Shown here in pieces: positions 3,417-15,427 of a DNA stretch of 64,000 bases (position 1 is the first letter of the stretch; each line of letters begins with the position of its first letter). A program made the translations under genes and the position numbers. This DNA is from Gammaproteobacteria bacterium (GTDB taxonomy: Bacteria > Pseudomonadota > Gammaproteobacteria > QQUJ01), in assembly GCA_050287605.1 (NCBI GenBank), contig JBNKCG010000026.1:76123-140122 (forward strand). Direction: 5' to 3'. The notes beneath the pieces were generated by a model. The model had not been told where the DNA came from and ran no database searches. It was given only the letters and a program-made list of their open reading frames with translations.

Positions 3417-4936
3417 GGCGGCCCCGGATTGACGGCCCGACGCAGATGGGCGAAGAGATCGGAGGCCAGCAGGCCGCGTTCGCCGTCGCGGGCAGCGCAA
3501 TCGGCAGCGTGCGCGTGAACCCAGACACCGACGCGCGCGGCCAGGCGAGGCACCACTCCCTGCGCCAGCAGGCCGGCGATCACCCCCGTCAGCACGTCGC
3601 CCATCCCGCCGCTGCCCATGCCCGGATTGCCCAGGGCGCACAGCCCCAGCGTGTCATCGCCAGCAGCCACCAGCGTGCCCGCTCCTTTCAACACCACCAC
3701 ACCGCCAAAGCGCGCCTGCAGGTGACGCGCCGCTGCAAACCGGTCCGCCTGGACCTCGGTCACGCTGCACCCGAGCAACCGCGCCGCCTCGCCCGGGTGC
3801 GGGGTCAATATCCAGCGTTCGCTGCGCTGCGGCCGCTCGGCCAACAGGTTGAGCCCGTCGGCATCCAATACCAGGGGCAGATCGCTCGTCAGTGTCGCTT
3901 CCAGCAGCTCGCGACCCCACGCGCCGCGCCCCATCCCAGGCCCCACAGCGAGCACCGACGCGCGCCGCAGTAGTGGCTGCAGGGCAGCGGCCTCTTCCAC
4001 ACCGTGGGCCATGATCTCCGGCTGGGTCATGGTCATCAGACCGGCGTGCGACTCGCGCGTCGCGACGCTGACCAGGCCCGCGCCGACACGCGCCGCGGCA
4101 CTGGCCGCCATGCGCGCAGCGCCCGCCATACCGAATTCACCTCCGACAACCAGCACGTGGCCGTGGTCGCCCTTGTGGCTGCAGCGCGCCCGCGGCGTCA
4201 GTGCATCGCGCACCTCCTCCTGGCCGATTCGTGTCACCTCGGCGCGCACCGCGTCGTACACCTGTGGCGGCACGCCGAGGGCGGCAAAGCGCACCGCGCC
4301 GGTATAGTCCGGCGCCAGGCCGGTGAACAGCCCCTGTTTGAGCCCGATGAAGGTGACGGTCAGGATTGCCTGAACCGCGATTCCCAAAGGCATGCCGGTA
4401 TCGGCGCTCAGCCCCGACGGGATATCGAGCGCCATCACCGGCTGGTCGCTGGCGTTGATGGCGGCAATGGCGGCGGCGTACTCGCCCTGCACCTCGCGCT
4501 CTAGACCGGTACCCAGCAGCGCATCGACGATGACACACGGACGCTGCAGTGCTTCCGGTTCGAAGCTGCGCACGCGGCCACCGGCATCGCGCCACCGCCG
4601 ATACATCAGCAGCGCATCGCCGCCCGGTTCGCGCGCCCCGCCTGGACGCAGCACGTCGACCTCAAGTCCCGCTTCGCGCGCAAGCCGGGCGACCACATAA
4701 CCGTCCCCACCGTTGTTGCCGCTGCCGCACACCACCACCACGCGTTGCGCCGACGGCCAGCGTTTCTGAAACGCGCCAAAGGCCGCCCGGCCGGCGCGCT
4801 CCATCAATTCGCTGCCCGGGATGCCGTACTCCTCGATGGCCACGCGATCCAATTCCCGCACTTGCGATGCACGATATAGCGCGCCGGGTAGTGCGTCGAT
4901 GGCTACGGATTGATGGGAACGAGACGGGGTGGTCAT
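3413..4936 (-). CDS. nnr: Bifunctional NAD(P)H-hydrate epimerase/dehydratase (YjeF/Nnr)
   Basis: CGSGNNGGDG, VDALLGTG, DIPSG, HKGDHGHVLVVGG, VLDADGL, LTPHPGEAARL, GGMGDVLTG. Confidence 0.96.
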   Translation of the reverse strand: MTTPSRSHQSVAIDALPGALYRASQVRELDRVAIEEYGIPGSELMERAGRAAFGAFQKRWPSAQRVVVVCGSGNNGGDGYVVARLAREAGLEVDVLRPGGAREPGGDALLMYRRWRDAGGRVRSFEPEALQRPCVIVDALLGTGLEREVQGEYAAAIAAINASDQPVMALDIPSGLSADTGMPLGIAVQAILTVTFIGLKQGLFTGLAPDYTGAVRFAALGVPPQVYDAVRAEVTRIGQEEVRDALTPRARCSHKGDHGHVLVVGGEFGMAGAARMAASAAARVGAGLVSVATRESHAGLMTMTQPEIMAHGVEEAAALQPLLRRASVLAVGPGMGRGAWGRELLEATLTSDLPLVLDADGLNLLAERPQRSERWILTPHPGEAARLLGCSVTEVQADRFAAARHLQARFGGVVVLKGAGTLVAAGDDTLGLCALGNPGMGSGGMGDVLTGVIAGLLAQGVVPRLAARVGVWVHAHAADCAARDGERGLLASDLFAHLRRAVNPGPP

Positions 4937-4941
4937 GAACG

Positions 4942-6105
4942 ATGGCTGAGGCGAACGGGAATCAGTGGCAAAATACCGCGAAACTCCGTTGCGAATCCAG
5001 CCGCCACTTGAACGCCTCCCACACACTTTCGCCCGCCGACGCTGCCGAACTCGCCGCGTGCATACGCGGCTGGGCACGCGAGCTCGGGTTTCAAGGGGTG
5101 GGATTCGCCGATATCGCCCTGAGCGACGCCGAGCAGCACCTGCAGCAGTGGCTGAAACACGGCTATCACGGCGCGATGGAGTACATGGCGCGGCACGGGA
5201 GCCTGCGCAGTCGGCCCGACGAACTGGTACCGGGCACGCTCAGCGTCATCAGTGTACGCATGGACTACTTGCCGCAGCCCATGGCGCGGGCCGAGGAGGT
5301 ACTGGCCGACAGCGAGCGGGGCTACGTCTCGCGCTACGCGCTGGGGCGCGACTATCACAAGCTGATGCGCAAACGCCTGCAGCAACTGGCCGAGCGGATC
5401 GAGTCGCGAGTCGGCGCATTCGCCTACCGCGCGTTCGTCGACAGTGCGCCGGTATTGGAAAAGCCCCTCGCCGGCAAAGCGGGACTGGGGTGGCAGGGCA
5501 AACACACCAACCTCATCGACAGCAGCAGCGGATCGTTCTTCTTTCTGGGCGAGATCTACACCGATCTGCCGTTGCCATCCGATGCGCCCGTCGCGGATCA
5601 CTGCGGCACCTGCCAGGCCTGCATCGACGTCTGTCCGACCCAGGCCATCGTCGCGCCCTACCAGCTCGATGCGCGCCTATGCATCTCGTACCTCACCATC
5701 GAACACCCGGGATCGATACCCGAAGCGCTGCGACCGGCCATCGGCAACCGCATCTACGGGTGCGACGACTGCCAGCTGGTCTGCCCGTGGAATCGCTTTG
5801 CGCGCCTCAGCGCCGAGCGCGGATTTGCTCCCCGCGACGACCTGGAAGCCCCGCAATTGGTCGAGTTGTTTCGCTGGAGCGAAGCGGAATTCCTGAAACG
5901 AACCGAAGGCAGCCCCTTGCGCCGACTGGGCTACCAGCGCTGGATGCGCAACATCGCGGTCGCGCTGGGCAACGCACCGCCCTCCGCGATTGCACACGAT
6001 GCGTTGACGGACGCCACAGAGAGTCGTTCGCCGTTGATCCGTGAACATGCCCGCTGGGGATTGCAGCGACAGCGAGAGAAGGGCGGCAACGAAACGCCCA
6101 CGTGA
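4942..6105 (+). CDS. queG: Epoxyqueuosine reductase QueG
   Basis: SRYALGRDYH, FVDSAPVLEK, CGTCQACIDVCPT and YGCDDCQLVCPWN Fe-S motifs; divergent from nnr as in E. coli. True start may be somewhat downstream. Confidence 0.96.
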   Translation: MAEANGNQWQNTAKLRCESSRHLNASHTLSPADAAELAACIRGWARELGFQGVGFADIALSDAEQHLQQWLKHGYHGAMEYMARHGSLRSRPDELVPGTLSVISVRMDYLPQPMARAEEVLADSERGYVSRYALGRDYHKLMRKRLQQLAERIESRVGAFAYRAFVDSAPVLEKPLAGKAGLGWQGKHTNLIDSSSGSFFFLGEIYTDLPLPSDAPVADHCGTCQACIDVCPTQAIVAPYQLDARLCISYLTIEHPGSIPEALRPAIGNRIYGCDDCQLVCPWNRFARLSAERGFAPRDDLEAPQLVELFRWSEAEFLKRTEGSPLRRLGYQRWMRNIAVALGNAPPSAIAHDALTDATESRSPLIREHARWGLQRQREKGGNETPT

Positions 6106-10606: not shown

Positions 10607-12253
10607 TCAATGGGATTCGCTGAGCGGTCGGGTGGAACCCTCACGGATCTGCGCGGCAAATACCTCCTGCAGCGCCTGCACGTTGGGATCTTGGGCGACC
10701 GCCGCCTCCGCCTCGGCCTGGCGTTCGGCATTCTCGCGGGCACGCACCTGCGCCGGCGTGGCCTGCACGCCGGCACCGACGTCGATCTGTAACCGCAGCG
10801 CGGTGCCGAAATGGCTTTGCAGCGCCTCGGCCAGGCGTTTTTCCAATGAGTCGCTGCGCAGCTGTTCATGGGCCGGATCGAGCACCAAGCGTACCCGCCC
10901 GCCCTCGCGTCCGCCCCACGAGCAGTGCATGGCCAGCTCTTTGGCCATGCCGCCGACCCGCAGGTTGGCGACGACGCGCTGCCAATCGTCGTCGCCGGCC
11001 GGCTCAGCCGCCACGGGCGGCGGCATCGGCCGCTCGTCGTGGGCAGGCACCGGCGGCTGGGGGGGCGGTTCCGCCGCGGCCGCGGATCGTTGCGGTGCGC
11101 GAGCAGTGGGTGCTGCCGCCGTGGGAATCGTGCGCGGCGGCGCGTCGCTTGCGACCGGCTGCTCGCCGCTCTCCGGCCGAAAGGCCAGCATACGCAGCAA
11201 CACCATCTCGAACCCGCCGCGCGGTTCCGGCGACAGCGGCAAATCGCGCCGTCCGTTGAGAGCGATCTGGTAGAACAGCTGCACATCCTCCGCCGCGGCG
11301 CTTGCCGCCAGCGCCATCACCGCCTCGCGGTCGCCCAACGCGTCGTCAATAGCCGCCGGCACTACCTGCGCCAACGCCACCCGCTGCAGCACCGAGATCA
11401 CGTCGGCCAGCGCCGCGCCGAAATCGGGCGCTTGCATTGCCATGCGACCGATCTCTTCCATCAGCGCCTCGCCGTTGCCGGCGACCACCTGGCGCAGCAG
11501 CTCGAACACGTGGCGCTGATCGATGCTGCCGAGCATGGCGCGCACCTCGTCGTCGCGCAGCGCACCGCCACCGTGGGCGATGGCTTGGTCGAGCAGGCTG
11601 AGCGCATCGCGCATGCTGCCGTCGGCCGCGCGCGCCACGCGTATCGCCGCACCCGGGTCGGAGGTGATCCCCTCGCGTTCCAGGAGGGTTTGCAGGTACT
11701 CGGCAATCATCTCGGCGGGCAGCCGTTTGAGGCTGAATTGCAGACAACGCGACAGCACCGTCACCGGCACCTTCTGCGGATCGGTGGTGGCCAACAGGAA
11801 CTTCACGTGCGGCGGCGGCTCTTCCAGCGTCTTCAGCAACGCGTTGAAGCTGTGGGTGGAGAGCATGTGCACCTCGTCGATGAGGTAGACCTTGTAGCGC
11901 CCGCGCGTCGGGGCGTACTGCACGTTGTCCATCAGCTCGCGCGTGTCCTCCACCTTGGTGCGCGAGGCGGCGTCCACTTCGATCAGATCGATGAAGCGCC
12001 CCTCGTCCACCTCGCGGCAGGTGGCGCACTCCCCGCAGGGGCGTGAGCTCACCCCGCGTTCGCAATTGAGCGACTTGGCGAAGATGCGCGCCAGGGTGGT
12101 CTTGCCCACGCCGCGCGTGCCGGTGAACAAAAAAGCGTGGTGGATGCGATCGTTGTCCAGAGCGTTGACCAGCGCCTTGACCACGTGCTCCTGGCCCACC
12201 ATCTCGTCGAAGGTGCGGGGCCGCCACTTGCGTGCCAACACTTGATAGCTCAT
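10607..12253 (-). CDS. dnaX: DNA polymerase III subunit gamma/tau
   Basis: MSYQVLARKWRP, GTRGVGKTT, IDEVHML, LSRCLQF, Pro/Ala-rich linker, C-terminal tau domain. Confidence 0.98.
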   Translation of the reverse strand: MSYQVLARKWRPRTFDEMVGQEHVVKALVNALDNDRIHHAFLFTGTRGVGKTTLARIFAKSLNCERGVSSRPCGECATCREVDEGRFIDLIEVDAASRTKVEDTRELMDNVQYAPTRGRYKVYLIDEVHMLSTHSFNALLKTLEEPPPHVKFLLATTDPQKVPVTVLSRCLQFSLKRLPAEMIAEYLQTLLEREGITSDPGAAIRVARAADGSMRDALSLLDQAIAHGGGALRDDEVRAMLGSIDQRHVFELLRQVVAGNGEALMEEIGRMAMQAPDFGAALADVISVLQRVALAQVVPAAIDDALGDREAVMALAASAAAEDVQLFYQIALNGRRDLPLSPEPRGGFEMVLLRMLAFRPESGEQPVASDAPPRTIPTAAAPTARAPQRSAAAAEPPPQPPVPAHDERPMPPPVAAEPAGDDDWQRVVANLRVGGMAKELAMHCSWGGREGGRVRLVLDPAHEQLRSDSLEKRLAEALQSHFGTALRLQIDVGAGVQATPAQVRARENAERQAEAEAAVAQDPNVQALQEVFAAQIREGSTRPLSESH

Positions 12254-12327
12254 GGATCGCTCGGGGGTGTGGTCAAAAAGAGGGGCGATTATAGCGCACC
12301 TGCCGCGGCGCGACGGGCGGAAAGGGT

Positions 12328-12439
12328 GGCGGCCCATACCAGCCACACCCCGGCACACGAGGCCACTGCTGCCGCTGCTCCCTTCCGGGCCTGACGGGGT
12401 TCACAGTTTATCGTTGCGGGGGGACCGGCATGGTCCGCC
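12328..12439 (-). ncRNA. ffs: Signal recognition particle RNA (4.5S, small bacterial SRP)
   Basis: Reverse complement contains the conserved domain IV TCAGGCCCGGAAGGGAGCAGC; terminal stem GGCGGACCATGCC...GGTATGGGCCGCC; canonical position upstream of dnaX. Confidence 0.95.
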
Positions 12440-12478
12440 ATGGAACCGCGGGACCGGGAGCCCGGTCCGAGGGGGGCC

Positions 12479-12507
12479 TTTATACCCCAGCGCCTCACGA
12501 GTAACAA
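12479..12507 (-). promoter_or_regulatory. Sigma-70 promoter for ffs (TTGTTA-17-TATAAA)
   Basis: Minus strand ttgtta-ctcgtgaggcgctgggg-tataaa with 17-nt spacing, about 40 nt upstream of the mature SRP RNA. Confidence 0.7.
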
Positions 12508-12520
12508 GCGGGCTGGCACC

Positions 12521-13054
12521 TTACCGAGGAACGCGGACTTCGCGTTGACCCACCTCCCGGCCAATGCTGGGTGGCAACAGATCTTCAAGGAAAAAGGCCG
12601 ACAGCTCGGCACGCCCCGCGAGCCCCGACTTGCGGTAGATCTCCACGGCTTGCTGCCGCACCGTGCTCTGGCTTAGACCGGTGACCGCTGCAACCTCCTT
12701 GTGGCTCATCCCCTTGATCAGCAGCATAGCGGTTGTGCGTTCGCCCCCATTGAGTTCCCAGGCGGACAGCTGCTCGTCAATGGCCCGCGCCAAGCCTTCC
12801 ATGTACACCTGAGCGCGCTGCACATTGGCGCGCATGCGCGCAACCGACCGTTGGGAGTAGTACCAGCCGACGCCCAGGTAGAGCGCCGTGATCAAACACA
12901 GCAGCAAAAAGACCACCTCGGCGACCAAGTGAAGGTTGGGCGCGCGGATAGCTATGTCGAATACCAAGTCCAGCAAGCCGACAAGGGTAATGGCGAGCGA
13001 CAGGATTGCCAGCCAGAGCATTACCCGCCGGGTTCTCGCGATCTTGGTCATCAT
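12521..13054 (-). CDS. Membrane-anchored LuxR-family transcriptional regulator (2 TM helices + HTH)
   Basis: Two hydrophobic helices (VMLWLAILSLAITLVGLL; LVAEVVFLLLCLITALYLGVGW) followed by a LuxR HTH (LNGGERTTAMLLIKGMSHKEVAAVTGLSQSTVRQQAVEIYRKSGLAGRAEL). Confidence 0.85.
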   Translation of the reverse strand: MMTKIARTRRVMLWLAILSLAITLVGLLDLVFDIAIRAPNLHLVAEVVFLLLCLITALYLGVGWYYSQRSVARMRANVQRAQVYMEGLARAIDEQLSAWELNGGERTTAMLLIKGMSHKEVAAVTGLSQSTVRQQAVEIYRKSGLAGRAELSAFFLEDLLPPSIGREVGQREVRVPR

Positions 13055-13201
13055 CGGCTGCTCCCCCCACGATCACAGCGTCAGCAAGCGCCCACCGCGT
13101 GTCCCGGCGGAATCGGAGAAAGCTCAGGCCCAAGTCCCCGATAGCTCGAACCTTGATCCTGACCGCGTCACTGCGACAGGCAGTGCGGATGGCAACGCAC
13201 C

Positions 13202-13250
13202 GAACATCTGTTCGTTCCCCGGCAAATGAACATCTGTTCGTTCCCCGGCA
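13202..13250. repeat. Perfect 23-bp tandem direct repeat GAACATCTGTTCGTTCCCCGGCA x2, each starting with the palindrome GAACA-TC-TGTTC
   Basis: Copies at 13202-13224 and 13228-13250 (26-bp period), in the divergent intergenic region. Confidence 0.95.
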
Positions 13251-13384
13251 GTCGCCCCCGTTGATACAAGGTTCCAGTCACCCGCCGCACGGGTGACGTA
13301 CCAAACCATAACACAAGCACGAACGGCCAGGCACAAGCCCGGACCGCAAGGCAAAACACATATCAATCCTTAAGGAGGGGACCC

Positions 13385-14797
13385 ATGAACCGAACCACGG
13401 TATCACTGGTGTTGCTGGGGGCAATGCTGTTCGCCCTCGGCCTCGCCTGGCTGTTCAACGGTCAGGGGGTGGTCCGCAACGATCACGCCCGGCACATCCA
13501 CATCCCGGATCCGCTGCTCATACCGCTGCAGGTGCGCGCCGCCTACAACGGCGAGCGTATCTTCTTCCAGTACCGCTGGCCGTCGCAGCGGCCCGGCATC
13601 CACAACGACGTCTACAAATACGAAGGCGGCAAGTGGGTGAAGTACGGTGAATCGCAGCCCGGCCCGCAGGCGCACGTATTCCTCGAGGACCGGGTGGCCA
13701 TGATGGTCGACGACGGACATGTCCCCGAATTCGGTCACTACGGAGGTTACGTCGCCATCGGCAGCGGCCTGGACACCTTCACGCAGGCGGCTGAATCGCC
13801 GCAGGTGAAGGCCCACGACTACTTGGGCAAGGTCATGGGGCAGGCTGTGGTCACCAAGTACTTACCGCAAACCCGCCAGCGTCCGGAGGACTGGACCACG
13901 GTGGTCGACGAGCAGCGCCTGACGGCGCTGCGCAAGGCCGGGTACTTCCTCGATCTCTGGCACTGGCGCGCCCACCGCTCGAACGCGCTCGGCTACTCCG
14001 ACGATCAGAACATCGCGGAGCTGCGCGGCGGCGATCCGGGCAAAAACGGCTGGTCGACCAACTGGGACAAGGAGAAGAACCAGCCCAAGTACATGTTCGA
14101 TCCGCAGCGCACCGGCCGCTTCGCCAACAGCTGGGACGATCTGAGCAGCGGGCGCGTGGGGCAGGACGACTACTACTACCTGTCGGACGAGACCAAGGTG
14201 CCATTCGATCCCAACCACGCCTGGAAGGAGGGTGACGTCTTGCCGCTGCGGGTGTTGCGACCCTACGAAGGGTCGATGGCCGACATCCGCACCGTCGGCC
14301 GCGGCCGCTGGCGGGACGGGTACTGGGAAGTCACGCTGTCGCGCCTCATGGATACCGGCGACCCGCTGCACGACAAATCGTTCGAGGAGGGGCACGTCTA
14401 CAACCTCGCGCTCGCCGTGCATCGCAACGCCACCGGGCAGCGCTGGCACTACGTCTCCCTGCCGCTGACCATCGGCCTGGGTCTCGACGGCGACTTCCGC
14501 GCCGAACGTTTCACCGGCGACCAACCGCCATGGAGCCAGAACTGGCATACGGTGAAACTGTTCTACCCCGGCCAGGTCAACTGGCCCCTGCTCACCAGCA
14601 ACCGGCATCCCGGCAAACCGATGATCGACCGCGGCATCCCGGTCCGGCACTACCACAAGGAAGAGCAGCTCGCCCGCTACGGTATCGAAGTGGAATTCCT
14701 TCCCGAGATACAGCGGCAGTGGCGCATGACCCTGGTCACCGGGGTGCTCCTATTTGCCGGCATCGGCTTCGGCCTGCTCCGTCTGCAAACTCGCTAA
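13385..14797 (+). CDS. Ethylbenzene-dehydrogenase-gamma-like (EB_dh / DOMON-like heme b) protein, membrane-anchored at both ends
   Basis: LQVRAAYNGERIFFQYRW, EDRVAMM, DLWHWRAHRS, WEVTLSRLMDTG, YNLALAVH pattern; N- and C-terminal hydrophobic helices; strong RBS AAGGAGGGG. Confidence 0.75.
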   Translation: MNRTTVSLVLLGAMLFALGLAWLFNGQGVVRNDHARHIHIPDPLLIPLQVRAAYNGERIFFQYRWPSQRPGIHNDVYKYEGGKWVKYGESQPGPQAHVFLEDRVAMMVDDGHVPEFGHYGGYVAIGSGLDTFTQAAESPQVKAHDYLGKVMGQAVVTKYLPQTRQRPEDWTTVVDEQRLTALRKAGYFLDLWHWRAHRSNALGYSDDQNIAELRGGDPGKNGWSTNWDKEKNQPKYMFDPQRTGRFANSWDDLSSGRVGQDDYYYLSDETKVPFDPNHAWKEGDVLPLRVLRPYEGSMADIRTVGRGRWRDGYWEVTLSRLMDTGDPLHDKSFEEGHVYNLALAVHRNATGQRWHYVSLPLTIGLGLDGDFRAERFTGDQPPWSQNWHTVKLFYPGQVNWPLLTSNRHPGKPMIDRGIPVRHYHKEEQLARYGIEVEFLPEIQRQWRMTLVTGVLLFAGIGFGLLRLQTR

Positions 14798-14812: not shown

Positions 14813-15427
14813 ATGGCACCGATTCATCACATCATGGCGCACTTCCCGATCGCGCTACTGAGTCTGGCTTTTCTTCTGATCCTGCTGCGTTCCCTGAACG
14901 TCGGTGATCTGGGCCGCCGCTTGGAATCCGCAGTCCTGATGTACCTTCTCGCACTGGGCATCGCCGGCGGCATCGCGGCCCTTATCACCGGTTTGCTCAT
15001 CTGGCCGCTGGATGCCACGCTGTCCTCGACTATGGGGCGCAACAAACTGCTGATGGCGACCTGGACGCTGTCCGTCTGGTCGCTCATCCTGCTACTTCGG
15101 TGGCGTGTAGGCGAGGCGATCTGGGCGGGGCAAAGCCGCTTCCTGCTACTCGGTTTAGGCGTGTTCGGCGCCATTCTCTTGGCCACAACCGGCACCCTGG
15201 GCGGCCACCTGCTGGGCTCGCCATCCCGCTTCTCGGGACTGCTGCACCAGTTCGGTTGGAGCGTCTACCAAACCTACTACGTGCCCACCTGGGTGCTGTG
15301 GATCATGATCGCAGCAAGCGGATCCGGGGTCGTCGCCGGGATGCTGGCCGGCGCAAACCGTGGTGTAGCGGTCCCAACTGCTGCGCGGAGCACGCTCGTG
15401 ACGCCCGAGGAACCCGCCGCGACGTAA
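14813..15427 (+). CDS. DUF2231-like membrane protein
   Basis: N-terminal HHIMAHFPIALL and TGTLGGHLL motifs; several TM helices; RBS GGAGGA. Confidence 0.65.
   Translation: MAPIHHIMAHFPIALLSLAFLLILLRSLNVGDLGRRLESAVLMYLLALGIAGGIAALITGLLIWPLDATLSSTMGRNKLLMATWTLSVWSLILLLRWRVGEAIWAGQSRFLLLGLGVFGAILLATTGTLGGHLLGSPSRFSGLLHQFGWSVYQTYYVPTWVLWIMIAASGSGVVAGMLAGANRGVAVPTAARSTLVTPEEPAAT

Follow-up and report, generated by a model that had tools for sequence, protein, structure and literature searches.

A membrane-hairpin LuxR-type regulator and its candidate paired operator sites beside a divergent haem-protein operon

How might a transcription factor that is held in the membrane by two helices, and carries no recognisable sensor domain, find its promoter, and which genes does it control? 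This question is raised by a locus in a 64,000-nucleotide (nt) stretch of DNA from a Gammaproteobacteria bacterium (assembly GCA_050287605.1, contig JBNKCG010000026.1, positions 76,123 to 140,122 of the forward strand; hereafter the window), in which the gene for a small LuxR/GerE-type regulator is divergent from genes for an EB_dh protein and a DUF2231 protein, and an exact repeat lies in the 330-bp intergenic region that separates them. Our analysis indicates that the divergent operon is very probably under the control of the regulator, bound at the repeated sites, and that the fuller explanation, in which a membrane-hairpin regulator acting from paired operators activates EB_dh-DUF2231, is likely to be correct. 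The features of the regulator, in window coordinates with the strand in brackets, are as follows.

12521..13054 (-): gene for the two-transmembrane (two-TM) LuxR/GerE-type one-component regulator, 177 residues; identified by open reading frame (ORF), Pfam and NCBIfam scans, homologues and an AlphaFold2 model
12947..13018 (-): TM helix 1, approximately residues 13-36; from hydropathy, within AlphaFold2 helix 2-36, with D29 and D33 near its periplasmic end
12857..12937 (-): TM helix 2, approximately residues 40-66; from hydropathy and the AlphaFold2 helix, with H42 and E46, running on as a cytoplasmic linker helix to residue 98
12581..12748 (-): four-helix NarL/GerE-type helix-turn-helix (HTH), residues 103-158; from PDB profile matches and Foldseek

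The repeat, GAACATCTGTTCGTTCCCCGGCA, is a 23-nt direct repeat found at 13202-13224 and again at 13228-13250, with a start-to-start distance of 26, and it carries the sequence CGAACA-TC-TGTTCG. No comparable match arose in 100 dinucleotide-preserving shuffles with three mismatches permitted, and GAACANNTGTTC occurs twice in the whole window, both times within the repeat, against an expectation of 0.02. Two candidate operator sites can be drawn from it, which we scored with a position weight matrix (PWM) built from the close relatives described below.

13200..13215 (no strand): operator site 1, regulator-proximal, CCGAACA-TC-TGTTCGT, a 7-2-7 inverted repeat centred at 13207.5; 18.7 bits against the clade PWM
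13226..13241 (no strand): operator site 2, EB_dh-proximal, ATGAACA-TC-TGTTCGT, centred at 13233.5; 16.5 bits against the clade PWM

Site 1 falls in the first copy of the repeat, with its centre at about -69.5 from the predicted EB_dh start, and site 2 in the second copy, with its centre at about -43.5. When the whole of the window's own genome was scanned with the clade PWM, paired sites were found at this locus only; no second regulon target emerged from that scan, and the other hits were unpaired, did not exceed the number expected by chance and lay for the most part within long ORFs.

One indication that these sites belong to the regulator comes from its nearest relatives. We define the close clade as the eight nearest homologues, which are 63-70% identical to the window's regulator; their contigs were found by exact-protein look-ups, a scan of metagenome contigs with the single protein having returned only relatives of 49% identity or less. 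The contigs come from unrelated samples and have different flanking genes, and in all eight loci the regulator is divergent from EB_dh and then DUF2231 wherever the contig extends that far, with an identity to the window's genes of 70-79% for EB_dh and 58-73% for DUF2231. The intergenic regions are unalignable save for one element, (C)CGACAAATGTTCGG. Two sites, in the form (C)GACA-AA-TGTTC(GG), are present in seven of the eight regions, and in the eighth (L175) only one site is clear, the second being weaker. An unbiased k-mer count agrees with this, with CGACAAA present in 7 of 9 regions compared with a maximum of 5 in 200 shuffles. The distance from site to site is 21 bp in three loci, approximately 110-125 bp in four and 26 bp in the window. 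Whereas the relatives have hybrid sites, with CCGACA in one arm and TGTTCGG in the other, the window site CCGAACA-TC-TGTTCGT is fully symmetric. Moreover, 11 non-motif bases (GTTCCCCGGCA) are identical between the window's two copies and are not conserved in other loci; the window's second site therefore stems from a recent 26-bp tandem duplication, which occurred in a lineage where two sites are the rule.

An operator of the same layout extends well beyond this clade. A distant set of about 150 loci (149 in the site counts) was assembled from many phyla, with regulators of 35-59% identity and control windows taken from the same loci, and k-mer enrichment followed by seeded PWM refinement converged on CATCCGnCA-nA-TGnCGGAg, that is, two inverted heptamers with 2 bp between them. 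Taking as a site any match of at least 10 bits to the CATCCGnCAnATGnCGGA matrix within 250 nt upstream of the regulator gene, at least one site is present in 128 of 149 upstream regions (86%) compared with 59 of 2,968 control windows (2%), and at least two in 60 of 149 (40%) compared with 2 of 2,968 (0.07%). The hexamer CATCCG alone occurs in 69% of upstream regions (170-250 nt) and 11.5% of controls, and the 8-mers ATGACGGA and ATCCGGCA in 28% and 0.6%, respectively. Most sites lie 10-70 nt ahead of the regulator start codon, and the spacings between them cluster near 22, 37, 43, 48 and 64 bp. Since the palindrome is found upstream of the regulator whatever its neighbour, the motif tracks the regulator gene and not a given target. 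The window half-site CCGAACA is a variant of the family TCCGnCA, and even the close-clade matrix, at 14 bits or more, is matched in 6.6% of the upstream regions of distant members against 0.06% of controls.

The half-site also changes with the protein. We compared its type with residue 3 of the 'SERT' stretch of the recognition helix (residues 129-143 in the window's regulator, reading SQSTVRQQAVEIYRK), using Fisher's test with kinship ignored. A TCCGnCA half-site accompanies Arg or Lys at this position in 63 of 79 cases, and another residue (Ser, Ala, Gln or Thr) in 9 of 27 (p = 2e-5); leaving out the close clade sharpens the difference, to 2 of 18 for the other residues against the same 63 of 79 (p = 8e-8). 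Furthermore, a separate clade with 'SEATVRQQ' (L144, L161 and L165) carries CGAACGGATGTTCG, which is nearly the window's site. Taken as comparative evidence, this makes a good case that the regulator binds the repeated element. The first-pass annotation of this DNA, made from the sequence alone, had reported an exact 23-bp repeat of 26-bp period with a palindromic core between the regulator and the divergent haem-protein genes, which the repeat search and shuffles bear out, and had read it as two dimer-binding sites for the adjacent regulator, a reading that clade conservation, the family-wide palindrome and the co-variation with the recognition helix all support. Its expectation that homologous TM-LuxR loci would contain GNACA-N2-TGTNC pairs proved correct in the seven close-clade regions with paired sites. 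The outcome it allowed for, that motif conservation is absent and the repeat is a neutral duplication, is not borne out, the motif itself being conserved in homologous loci, although the second window copy did arise by recent tandem duplication.

The position of the sites relative to the promoter suggests what their occupation might do. Three further features are needed here.

13262..13270 (+): predicted extended -10 element TGaTACAAG of the EB_dh-DUF2231 promoter; placed by conserved spacing, with the predicted start near 13277
13385..14797 (+): divergent candidate target gene 1, EB_dh (DOMON-like haem-b domain) protein, 470 residues; Pfam EB_dh 168 bits, divergent partner in the close clade
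14813..15427 (+): candidate target gene 2, DUF2231 membrane protein, 204 residues; Pfam DUF2231 31.5 bits, following EB_dh in relatives

In seven of the eight close-clade regions a -10-like hexamer (TAnAAn, often with TGn ahead) begins 31-32 bp downstream of the centre of the target-proximal site, while any other offset gives such a hexamer in 0-2 of the eight; a corresponding peak is seen family-wide, with 13 of 41 at one offset compared with 3 or fewer at offsets away from it. By this conserved distance the target-proximal site is centred at about -42 to -44 and covers the -35 region, in which no -35 hexamer can be recognised. Downstream of the regulator-proximal site no consistent -10 was found in the close clade, the positions being inconsistent from locus to locus. 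The lux box is centred at -42.5, a geometry that class II activators generally share. With moderate confidence, then, this lux-box-like class II arrangement suggests activation of EB_dh-DUF2231, with one regulator dimer at each of the 7-2-7 inverted repeats, here the two (C)CGAACA-TC-TGTTCG(T) copies 26 bp apart. The EB_dh-proximal dimer, some 43 bp upstream of the predicted start, would activate the haem-protein operon in class II fashion, and the second site would make binding cooperative, let the regulator control its own divergent gene, or do both.

Two other sequence features were noticed in the presumed EB_dh leader. A perfect 8-bp stem, GTCACCCG-CCGCA-CGGGTGAC, at 13278-13298 (+), begins where the EB_dh transcript is predicted to start and could either stabilise the 5' end as a hairpin or be bound by another protein. 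It is followed at 13312-13351 (+) by an imperfect 20-bp tandem repeat, CACAAGCACGAACGGCCAGG / CACAAGCCCGGACCGCAAGG, with 80% identity.

The architecture of the regulator is simple. Its two hydrophobic segments, centred on residues 18-30 and 43-58 (19-residue Kyte-Doolittle means above 1.6), are flanked by net charges of +4 ahead of TM1 and +4 behind TM2, which argues for an N-in/C-in topology with a periplasmic loop of about eight residues, too short for a sensor domain. The AlphaFold2 model, which had 29 homologues in its input and a mean predicted local distance difference test (pLDDT) score of 86.4, contains a helix at residues 2-36, a loop at 37-39, an unbroken helix at 40-98 and HTH helices at 103-113, 118-125, 129-143 and 148-158, so that, together with hydropathy, residues 1-100 are accounted for as two TM helices and a linker helix. 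Neither a REC nor an autoinducer-binding domain was found in Pfam and NCBIfam scans of the protein. The score of the window's regulator against Pfam GerE (PF00196) is 19.2 bits, below the gathering threshold of 23.5, whereas HTH_23 scores 26.0 bits, over its Pfam threshold. Most homologues have a precomputed PF00196 match, and we attribute the low GerE score to divergence of the window clade and not to a different fold. A family profile matches the GerE and VraR chains of the PDB (E = 1e-5 to 8e-4), and Foldseek superposes the C-terminal domain of the model on the DNA-binding domains of NarL, DosR, VraR, LiaR and GerE with a target TM-score of approximately 0.8 (0.7-0.85) and a root-mean-square deviation (rmsd) of 1.6-2.0 Å over about 60 residues; on the strength of the model, this domain has the LuxR/GerE (NarL/FixJ-type) HTH fold. 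The ORF, hydropathy, AlphaFold2, Pfam and Foldseek results thus confirm the initial description of a 177-residue protein in which two TM helices are joined to a LuxR HTH with no REC or autoinducer domain. The window clade is without 11 linker residues between TM2 and the HTH (at approximately residues 74-80, about three helical turns). This segment (ERDxWRxRA) is present in the rest of the family, and its loss coincides with the altered half-site of the clade.

Proteins of this design form a large, undescribed and very widespread family of minimal transmembrane transcription regulators. A single search returned more than 3,700 homologues of similar length, and a pattern scan with one genome per species confirmed at least 587 loci; among the loci listed are members of Gemmatimonadota, Myxococcota, Bdellovibrionota, Eisenbacteria, Acidobacteriota, Spirochaetota and Nitrospirota, as well as gamma- and betaproteobacteria. 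When 1.84 billion proteins were searched with a profile of the hairpin and linker (the N-terminal 100 residues), 1,036 cluster representatives (50% identity) matched, and almost all are between 110 and 240 residues long. Given this near-uniform length and architecture, the hairpin is dedicated to a single architecture, and we rejected the idea that it is a promiscuous sensor module fused to other outputs, as the profile search gave almost only the same architecture. One protein of 408 residues (P0121) consists of two hairpin-HTH units naturally fused in tandem; from the charged tetrad described below, His and Glu have been replaced in it (for example ...IDLSLAP...VRAAF...). It may represent a degenerate or ligand-independent branch of the family, and with its tetrad replaced it was not useful as a pseudo-dimer model.

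The genes beside the regulator in distant loci point to a common theme. Neighbours were taken as the nearest ORFs by a rule combining the longest ORF with third-codon-position GC content (GC3), and were then scanned against Pfam. Upstream neighbours are divergent in 84 cases against 45. The 98 that lie within 600 nt comprise, among others, 22 DUF2231 proteins, 17 cytochromes b561 (Ni_hydr_CYTB/DUF4405), 7 Haem_bd proteins (PF14376), 4 porin-like proteins with an N-terminal CxxCH and 19 apparently spurious arginine-rich ORFs; the DUF2231, b561, Haem_bd and porin-like neighbours are almost all divergent. Downstream neighbours of the same loci, which served as an internal control, include no recurring haem-type family. 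Within the b561 group (Methylobacter, Methylophilaceae) a VIT1-family gene follows b561 at 0-49 nt in 11 of 12 loci, and in the three loci of the 'SEATVRQQ' clade VIT1 stands directly after the regulator on the same strand. Taken together, these neighbour families define a regulon theme of membrane and periplasmic haem-b proteins with a repeated tie to Fe/Mn export, and the EB_dh-DUF2231 pair of the window is in keeping with it. The link to haem proteins first noted at this locus is therefore a general one, with DUF2231, cytochrome b561 and Haem_bd as the usual divergent neighbours. An earlier blank tblastn search, which had suggested that the link to EB_dh and DUF2231 was absent from 160 distant loci, was overturned by the Pfam-found DUF2231, b561 and Haem_bd genes; the divergent genes are too diverged for BLAST. 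Eukaryotic fusions of DOMON and cytochrome b561 (CYBDOM) are ferric reductases (PMC10784544, PMC10784552), and by analogy the EB_dh/DUF2231, b561 and Haem_bd modules may be their bacterial counterparts.

Two particular arrangements among these loci deserve mention. An operon of b561 and then VIT1, divergent from the regulator, is seen in the methylotroph loci L039, L055, L076, L124, L153, L174 and others. In the four loci whose operators are the most window-like among the distant set, the divergent gene (L002:3135-4430, L006:3357-4727, L007:787-2274 and L022:3339-4631, all on the minus strand) encodes a protein of approximately 430-495 residues with an N-terminal CxxCH and a weak Porin_4 match, which may be an outer-membrane haem-c/porin fusion.

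If the operator and its genes can be assigned with some assurance, the signal is a more tentative matter. Across 161 aligned members four charged residues are nearly invariant (D29 99%, D33 99%, H42 98% and E46 99%), whereas the rest of the hairpin is merely generically hydrophobic. They form D29-x3-D33 on TM1 and H42-x3-E46 on TM2, at matching depth near the periplasmic end. The cation diffusion facilitator (CDF) transporter YiiP has a tetrahedral DD-HD intramembrane site for Zn, Cd or Fe on two antiparallel TM helices (PMC7949119), and the resemblance of the tetrad to this pattern, together with the VIT1 linkage, leads us to favour a divalent metal as the signal. By this analogy, metal sensing by the hairpin is a plausible proposal that we hold at somewhat below even confidence. 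In the mechanism we propose, the signal would be read by D29/D33 and H42/E46 at the periplasmic end of the hairpin, and our best guess is iron or manganese, bound as in the CDF DD-HD site. Metal binding would shift the continuous helix formed by TM2 and the linker, the long linker helices would form a probable coiled coil, and the geometry of the HTH dimer would change as a result, with the regulator acting while it remains in the membrane. In this account the architecture, fold, repeat, family-wide operator, site pairing, neighbour association and promoter spacing come from computation; direct binding, activation as opposed to repression, action from the membrane and the nature of the signal are inferred.

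Several other explanations must be weighed against this account. The sites could be those of a repressor that blocks RNA polymerase at the -35 region until a signal derepresses EB_dh-DUF2231, and both the overlap of the target-proximal site with -35, a classic repressor position, and the location of the regulator-proximal site 10-50 nt from the start codon in many loci, which is typical of autorepression, would suit it. We nevertheless consider repression unlikely, as the lack of a recognisable -35 hexamer, with an extended -10 (TGn) at a fixed distance from the site centre in most close-clade loci, is the signature of an activator-dependent promoter, the centre near -43 agrees with the lux box of LuxR, and the characterised transmembrane LuxR-type proteins DadR, CadR and HcdR are activators (PMC9734109). 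It is also conceivable that the hairpin serves only to hold the regulator inactive until regulated proteolysis frees a soluble HTH fragment, several membrane-tethered factors and anti-sigma systems being known to act by release. This appears improbable for a protein whose loop of about eight residues leaves almost nothing for a site-1 protease, whose TM2 passes straight into the linker helix and whose invariant charged tetrad points to ligand sensing and not to a cleavage signal; moreover, with both regulator and targets in the membrane, coupled transcription, translation and insertion could hold the locus near it. The least credible of the alternatives, to which we give very little weight, denies any connection between the repeat and the regulator: the repeat would be either a neutral tandem duplication or bound by a different factor. 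The pattern CGAAC-N4-GTTCG is that of the Gram-positive SOS box (Cheo box) bound by LexA. CGAACATCTGTTCG fits it, and the 11 common non-motif bases attest that a recent 26-bp duplication did happen. Yet homologous loci retain the motif, in pairs, but not its flank. Across phyla the family-wide motif accompanies the regulator gene and varies in step with the recognition helix, and the CGACAAATGTTCGG of the relatives departs from the Cheo pattern. A LexA identity was rejected directly, since the region upstream of the host lexA has two CTG-N10-CAG boxes and no GAAC-N4-GTTC. Nor does a structured RNA account for the repeat: an Rfam search of 11500-14000 gave a signal recognition particle (SRP) RNA only.

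The rival that concerns the signal leaves the operators as described and has the hairpin sense haem, quinone/quinol redox state, pH or a co-regulated cytochrome, the last in the manner of CadC and LysP. The predicted targets are haem-b proteins, and the first-pass annotation had itself proposed membrane redox or haem state, or a DUF2231 partner. It also speaks for such a signal that quinone sites and proton sensors have His, Asp and Glu residues close to a membrane surface. On the other side, acidic residues are poor partners for haem propionates, and the partner protein changes from clade to clade (DUF2231, b561, Haem_bd or porin-like) under an invariant tetrad, which suggests a common small ligand. 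Furthermore, the D-x3-D and H-x3-E motifs on antiparallel helices agree in pattern with the metal site of CDF transporters (PMC7949119), and the link to VIT-family Fe/Mn exporters recurs in two distinct gene orders. We regard a non-metal signal as possible but doubtful.

Certain observations count against the explanation we prefer, in which the membrane-bound regulator activates EB_dh-DUF2231 from paired sites in response to a metal. At a spacing of 26 bp, compared with 21 bp in three relatives, the two sites in the window face opposite sides of the DNA helix, and the second copy, as a recent duplication, may not yet be tuned. A strict sigma-70 consensus scan of 12400-13500 gave no promoter, and a site over the -35 region fits repression equally. 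The co-variation statistic takes no account of phylogeny, and for the TGTTC-type half-site co-variation is non-significant once the close clade is left out (p = 0.11). The metal hypothesis draws on analogy and gene neighbourhood. A literature search gave no publication on LIC13292, two-TM LuxR regulators or the function of DUF2231, and among 14 model genomes none encodes a protein that scores over the LIC13292 cut-off. Finally, a genome of the same genus has an EB_dh-DUF2231 pair (51% and 37% identity) with no regulator; the operon therefore does not strictly need it, and the three-gene module is accessory and was probably acquired as a whole. That pair stands at another locus (L184, G001:C3:91500-99500, at approximately 4800-5500), which has no such motif. 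Beside it are frameshifted reading frames that, read from their sequence, we take to be a decayed IS200/RAYT-type Y1 transposase.

On the other side of the regulator gene lies one more feature of the window.

12334..12430 (-): bacterial small SRP RNA, Rfam RF00169, 77.6 bits; between dnaX and the regulator gene

The stop codon of the regulator is approximately 90 nt from the start of this RNA gene, with dnaX beyond.

Comparison with known systems helps to place the family. NarL has high-affinity sites of the 7-2-7 type, in which inverted heptamers lie 2 bp apart. The window operator has the same layout, which fits a dimer of NarL/GerE-type domains, and the DNA-binding domain superposes on that of NarL (PDB 1JE8) with a target TM-score of 0.82-0.83 and an rmsd of 1.6-1.7 Å; NarL, however, is a soluble response regulator controlled by phosphorylation of its REC domain, and its heptamer is TACYYMT, not TCCGnCA or CCGAACA. 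With LuxR and TraR at the lux and tra boxes the family shares the HTH fold, a dyad operator and a centre near -42.5 (here approximately -43, by conserved spacing), but those proteins are soluble, with an N-terminal acyl-homoserine-lactone domain that is absent here, and the lux box is a 20-bp palindrome of different sequence. Among curated models, only NCBIfam NF047608, the 'LIC13292 family transcriptional regulator' of Leptospira, bears a resemblance to the family; it is of similar length (166 positions). Residues 67-161 of the window's regulator (the end of TM2, the linker and the HTH) align to it with 65.8 bits against a cut-off of 200, which indicates a related subfamily and not an NF047608 member. 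The window's regulator is thus not a quorum-sensing LuxR, not a response regulator and not a member of the LIC13292 model.

By its architecture it belongs with the transmembrane transcription regulators (TTRs), which unite a DNA-binding domain and one or more TM regions in a single chain, and it would regulate transcription from the cytoplasmic membrane as they do. According to a survey of TTRs, 17% have two TM regions (PMC10269533). ToxR, TcpP and CadC are likewise TTRs that combine a DNA-binding domain and a TM region in a single polypeptide (PMC10269533), but in these an N-terminal winged helix of OmpR type is followed by a single TM helix and a periplasmic sensor domain of some size, whereas in the window family the order is reversed, with the hairpin first and the NarL/GerE HTH last, and there is essentially no periplasmic domain. 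A parallel in logic, though not in sequence or size, is offered by DadR, CadR and HcdR of Eggerthella lenta, the only characterised LuxR-type examples that we found, which have been shown experimentally to be transmembrane activators, have an N-terminal membrane domain fused to a C-terminal LuxR HTH with no REC, and are encoded beside, and opposite to, the redox-enzyme genes they control (PMC9734109). They differ in having 10-12 TM helices, compared with two in the window family, in sensing catechols and in belonging to Coriobacteriia (PMC9734109); their membrane domains have no detectable sequence relation to the window hairpin, and the operator and tetrad are not theirs. As for the site in YiiP/FieF, the likeness consists of an acidic i/i+4 pair on one helix and a His plus acidic i/i+4 pair on an antiparallel helix (PMC7949119), and it is an analogy of pattern without homology, as the tetrad is in a regulator instead of a transporter, lies near the periplasmic end and is a putative metal site.

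Transmembrane one-component regulators are common and few are understood, those of the LuxR type that have been characterised having 12 TM helices. A design that comprises little more than a hairpin of two helices with four invariant charged residues, joined by a rigid helix to an HTH, offers a simple system in which to ask how a signal at the membrane becomes a change in DNA binding, and it comes with predictions that can be tested across the family: an operator consensus, paired sites, a promoter position near -43, a specificity residue, sensor residues and a regulon theme. The poorly understood DUF2231/EB_dh and b561-VIT1 modules, in turn, gain a candidate context in the redox handling of iron or other metals. 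More speculatively, the tetrad could be a periplasm-facing Fe/Mn site, which would make this family the smallest known transmembrane metal-sensing activator, switching on haem-b modules and VIT exporters, a tentative proposal in which we place rather little confidence at present. If the metal reading is true, a widespread regulator found in many phyla would switch on extracytoplasmic haem-b electron transfer and VIT exporters from within the membrane.

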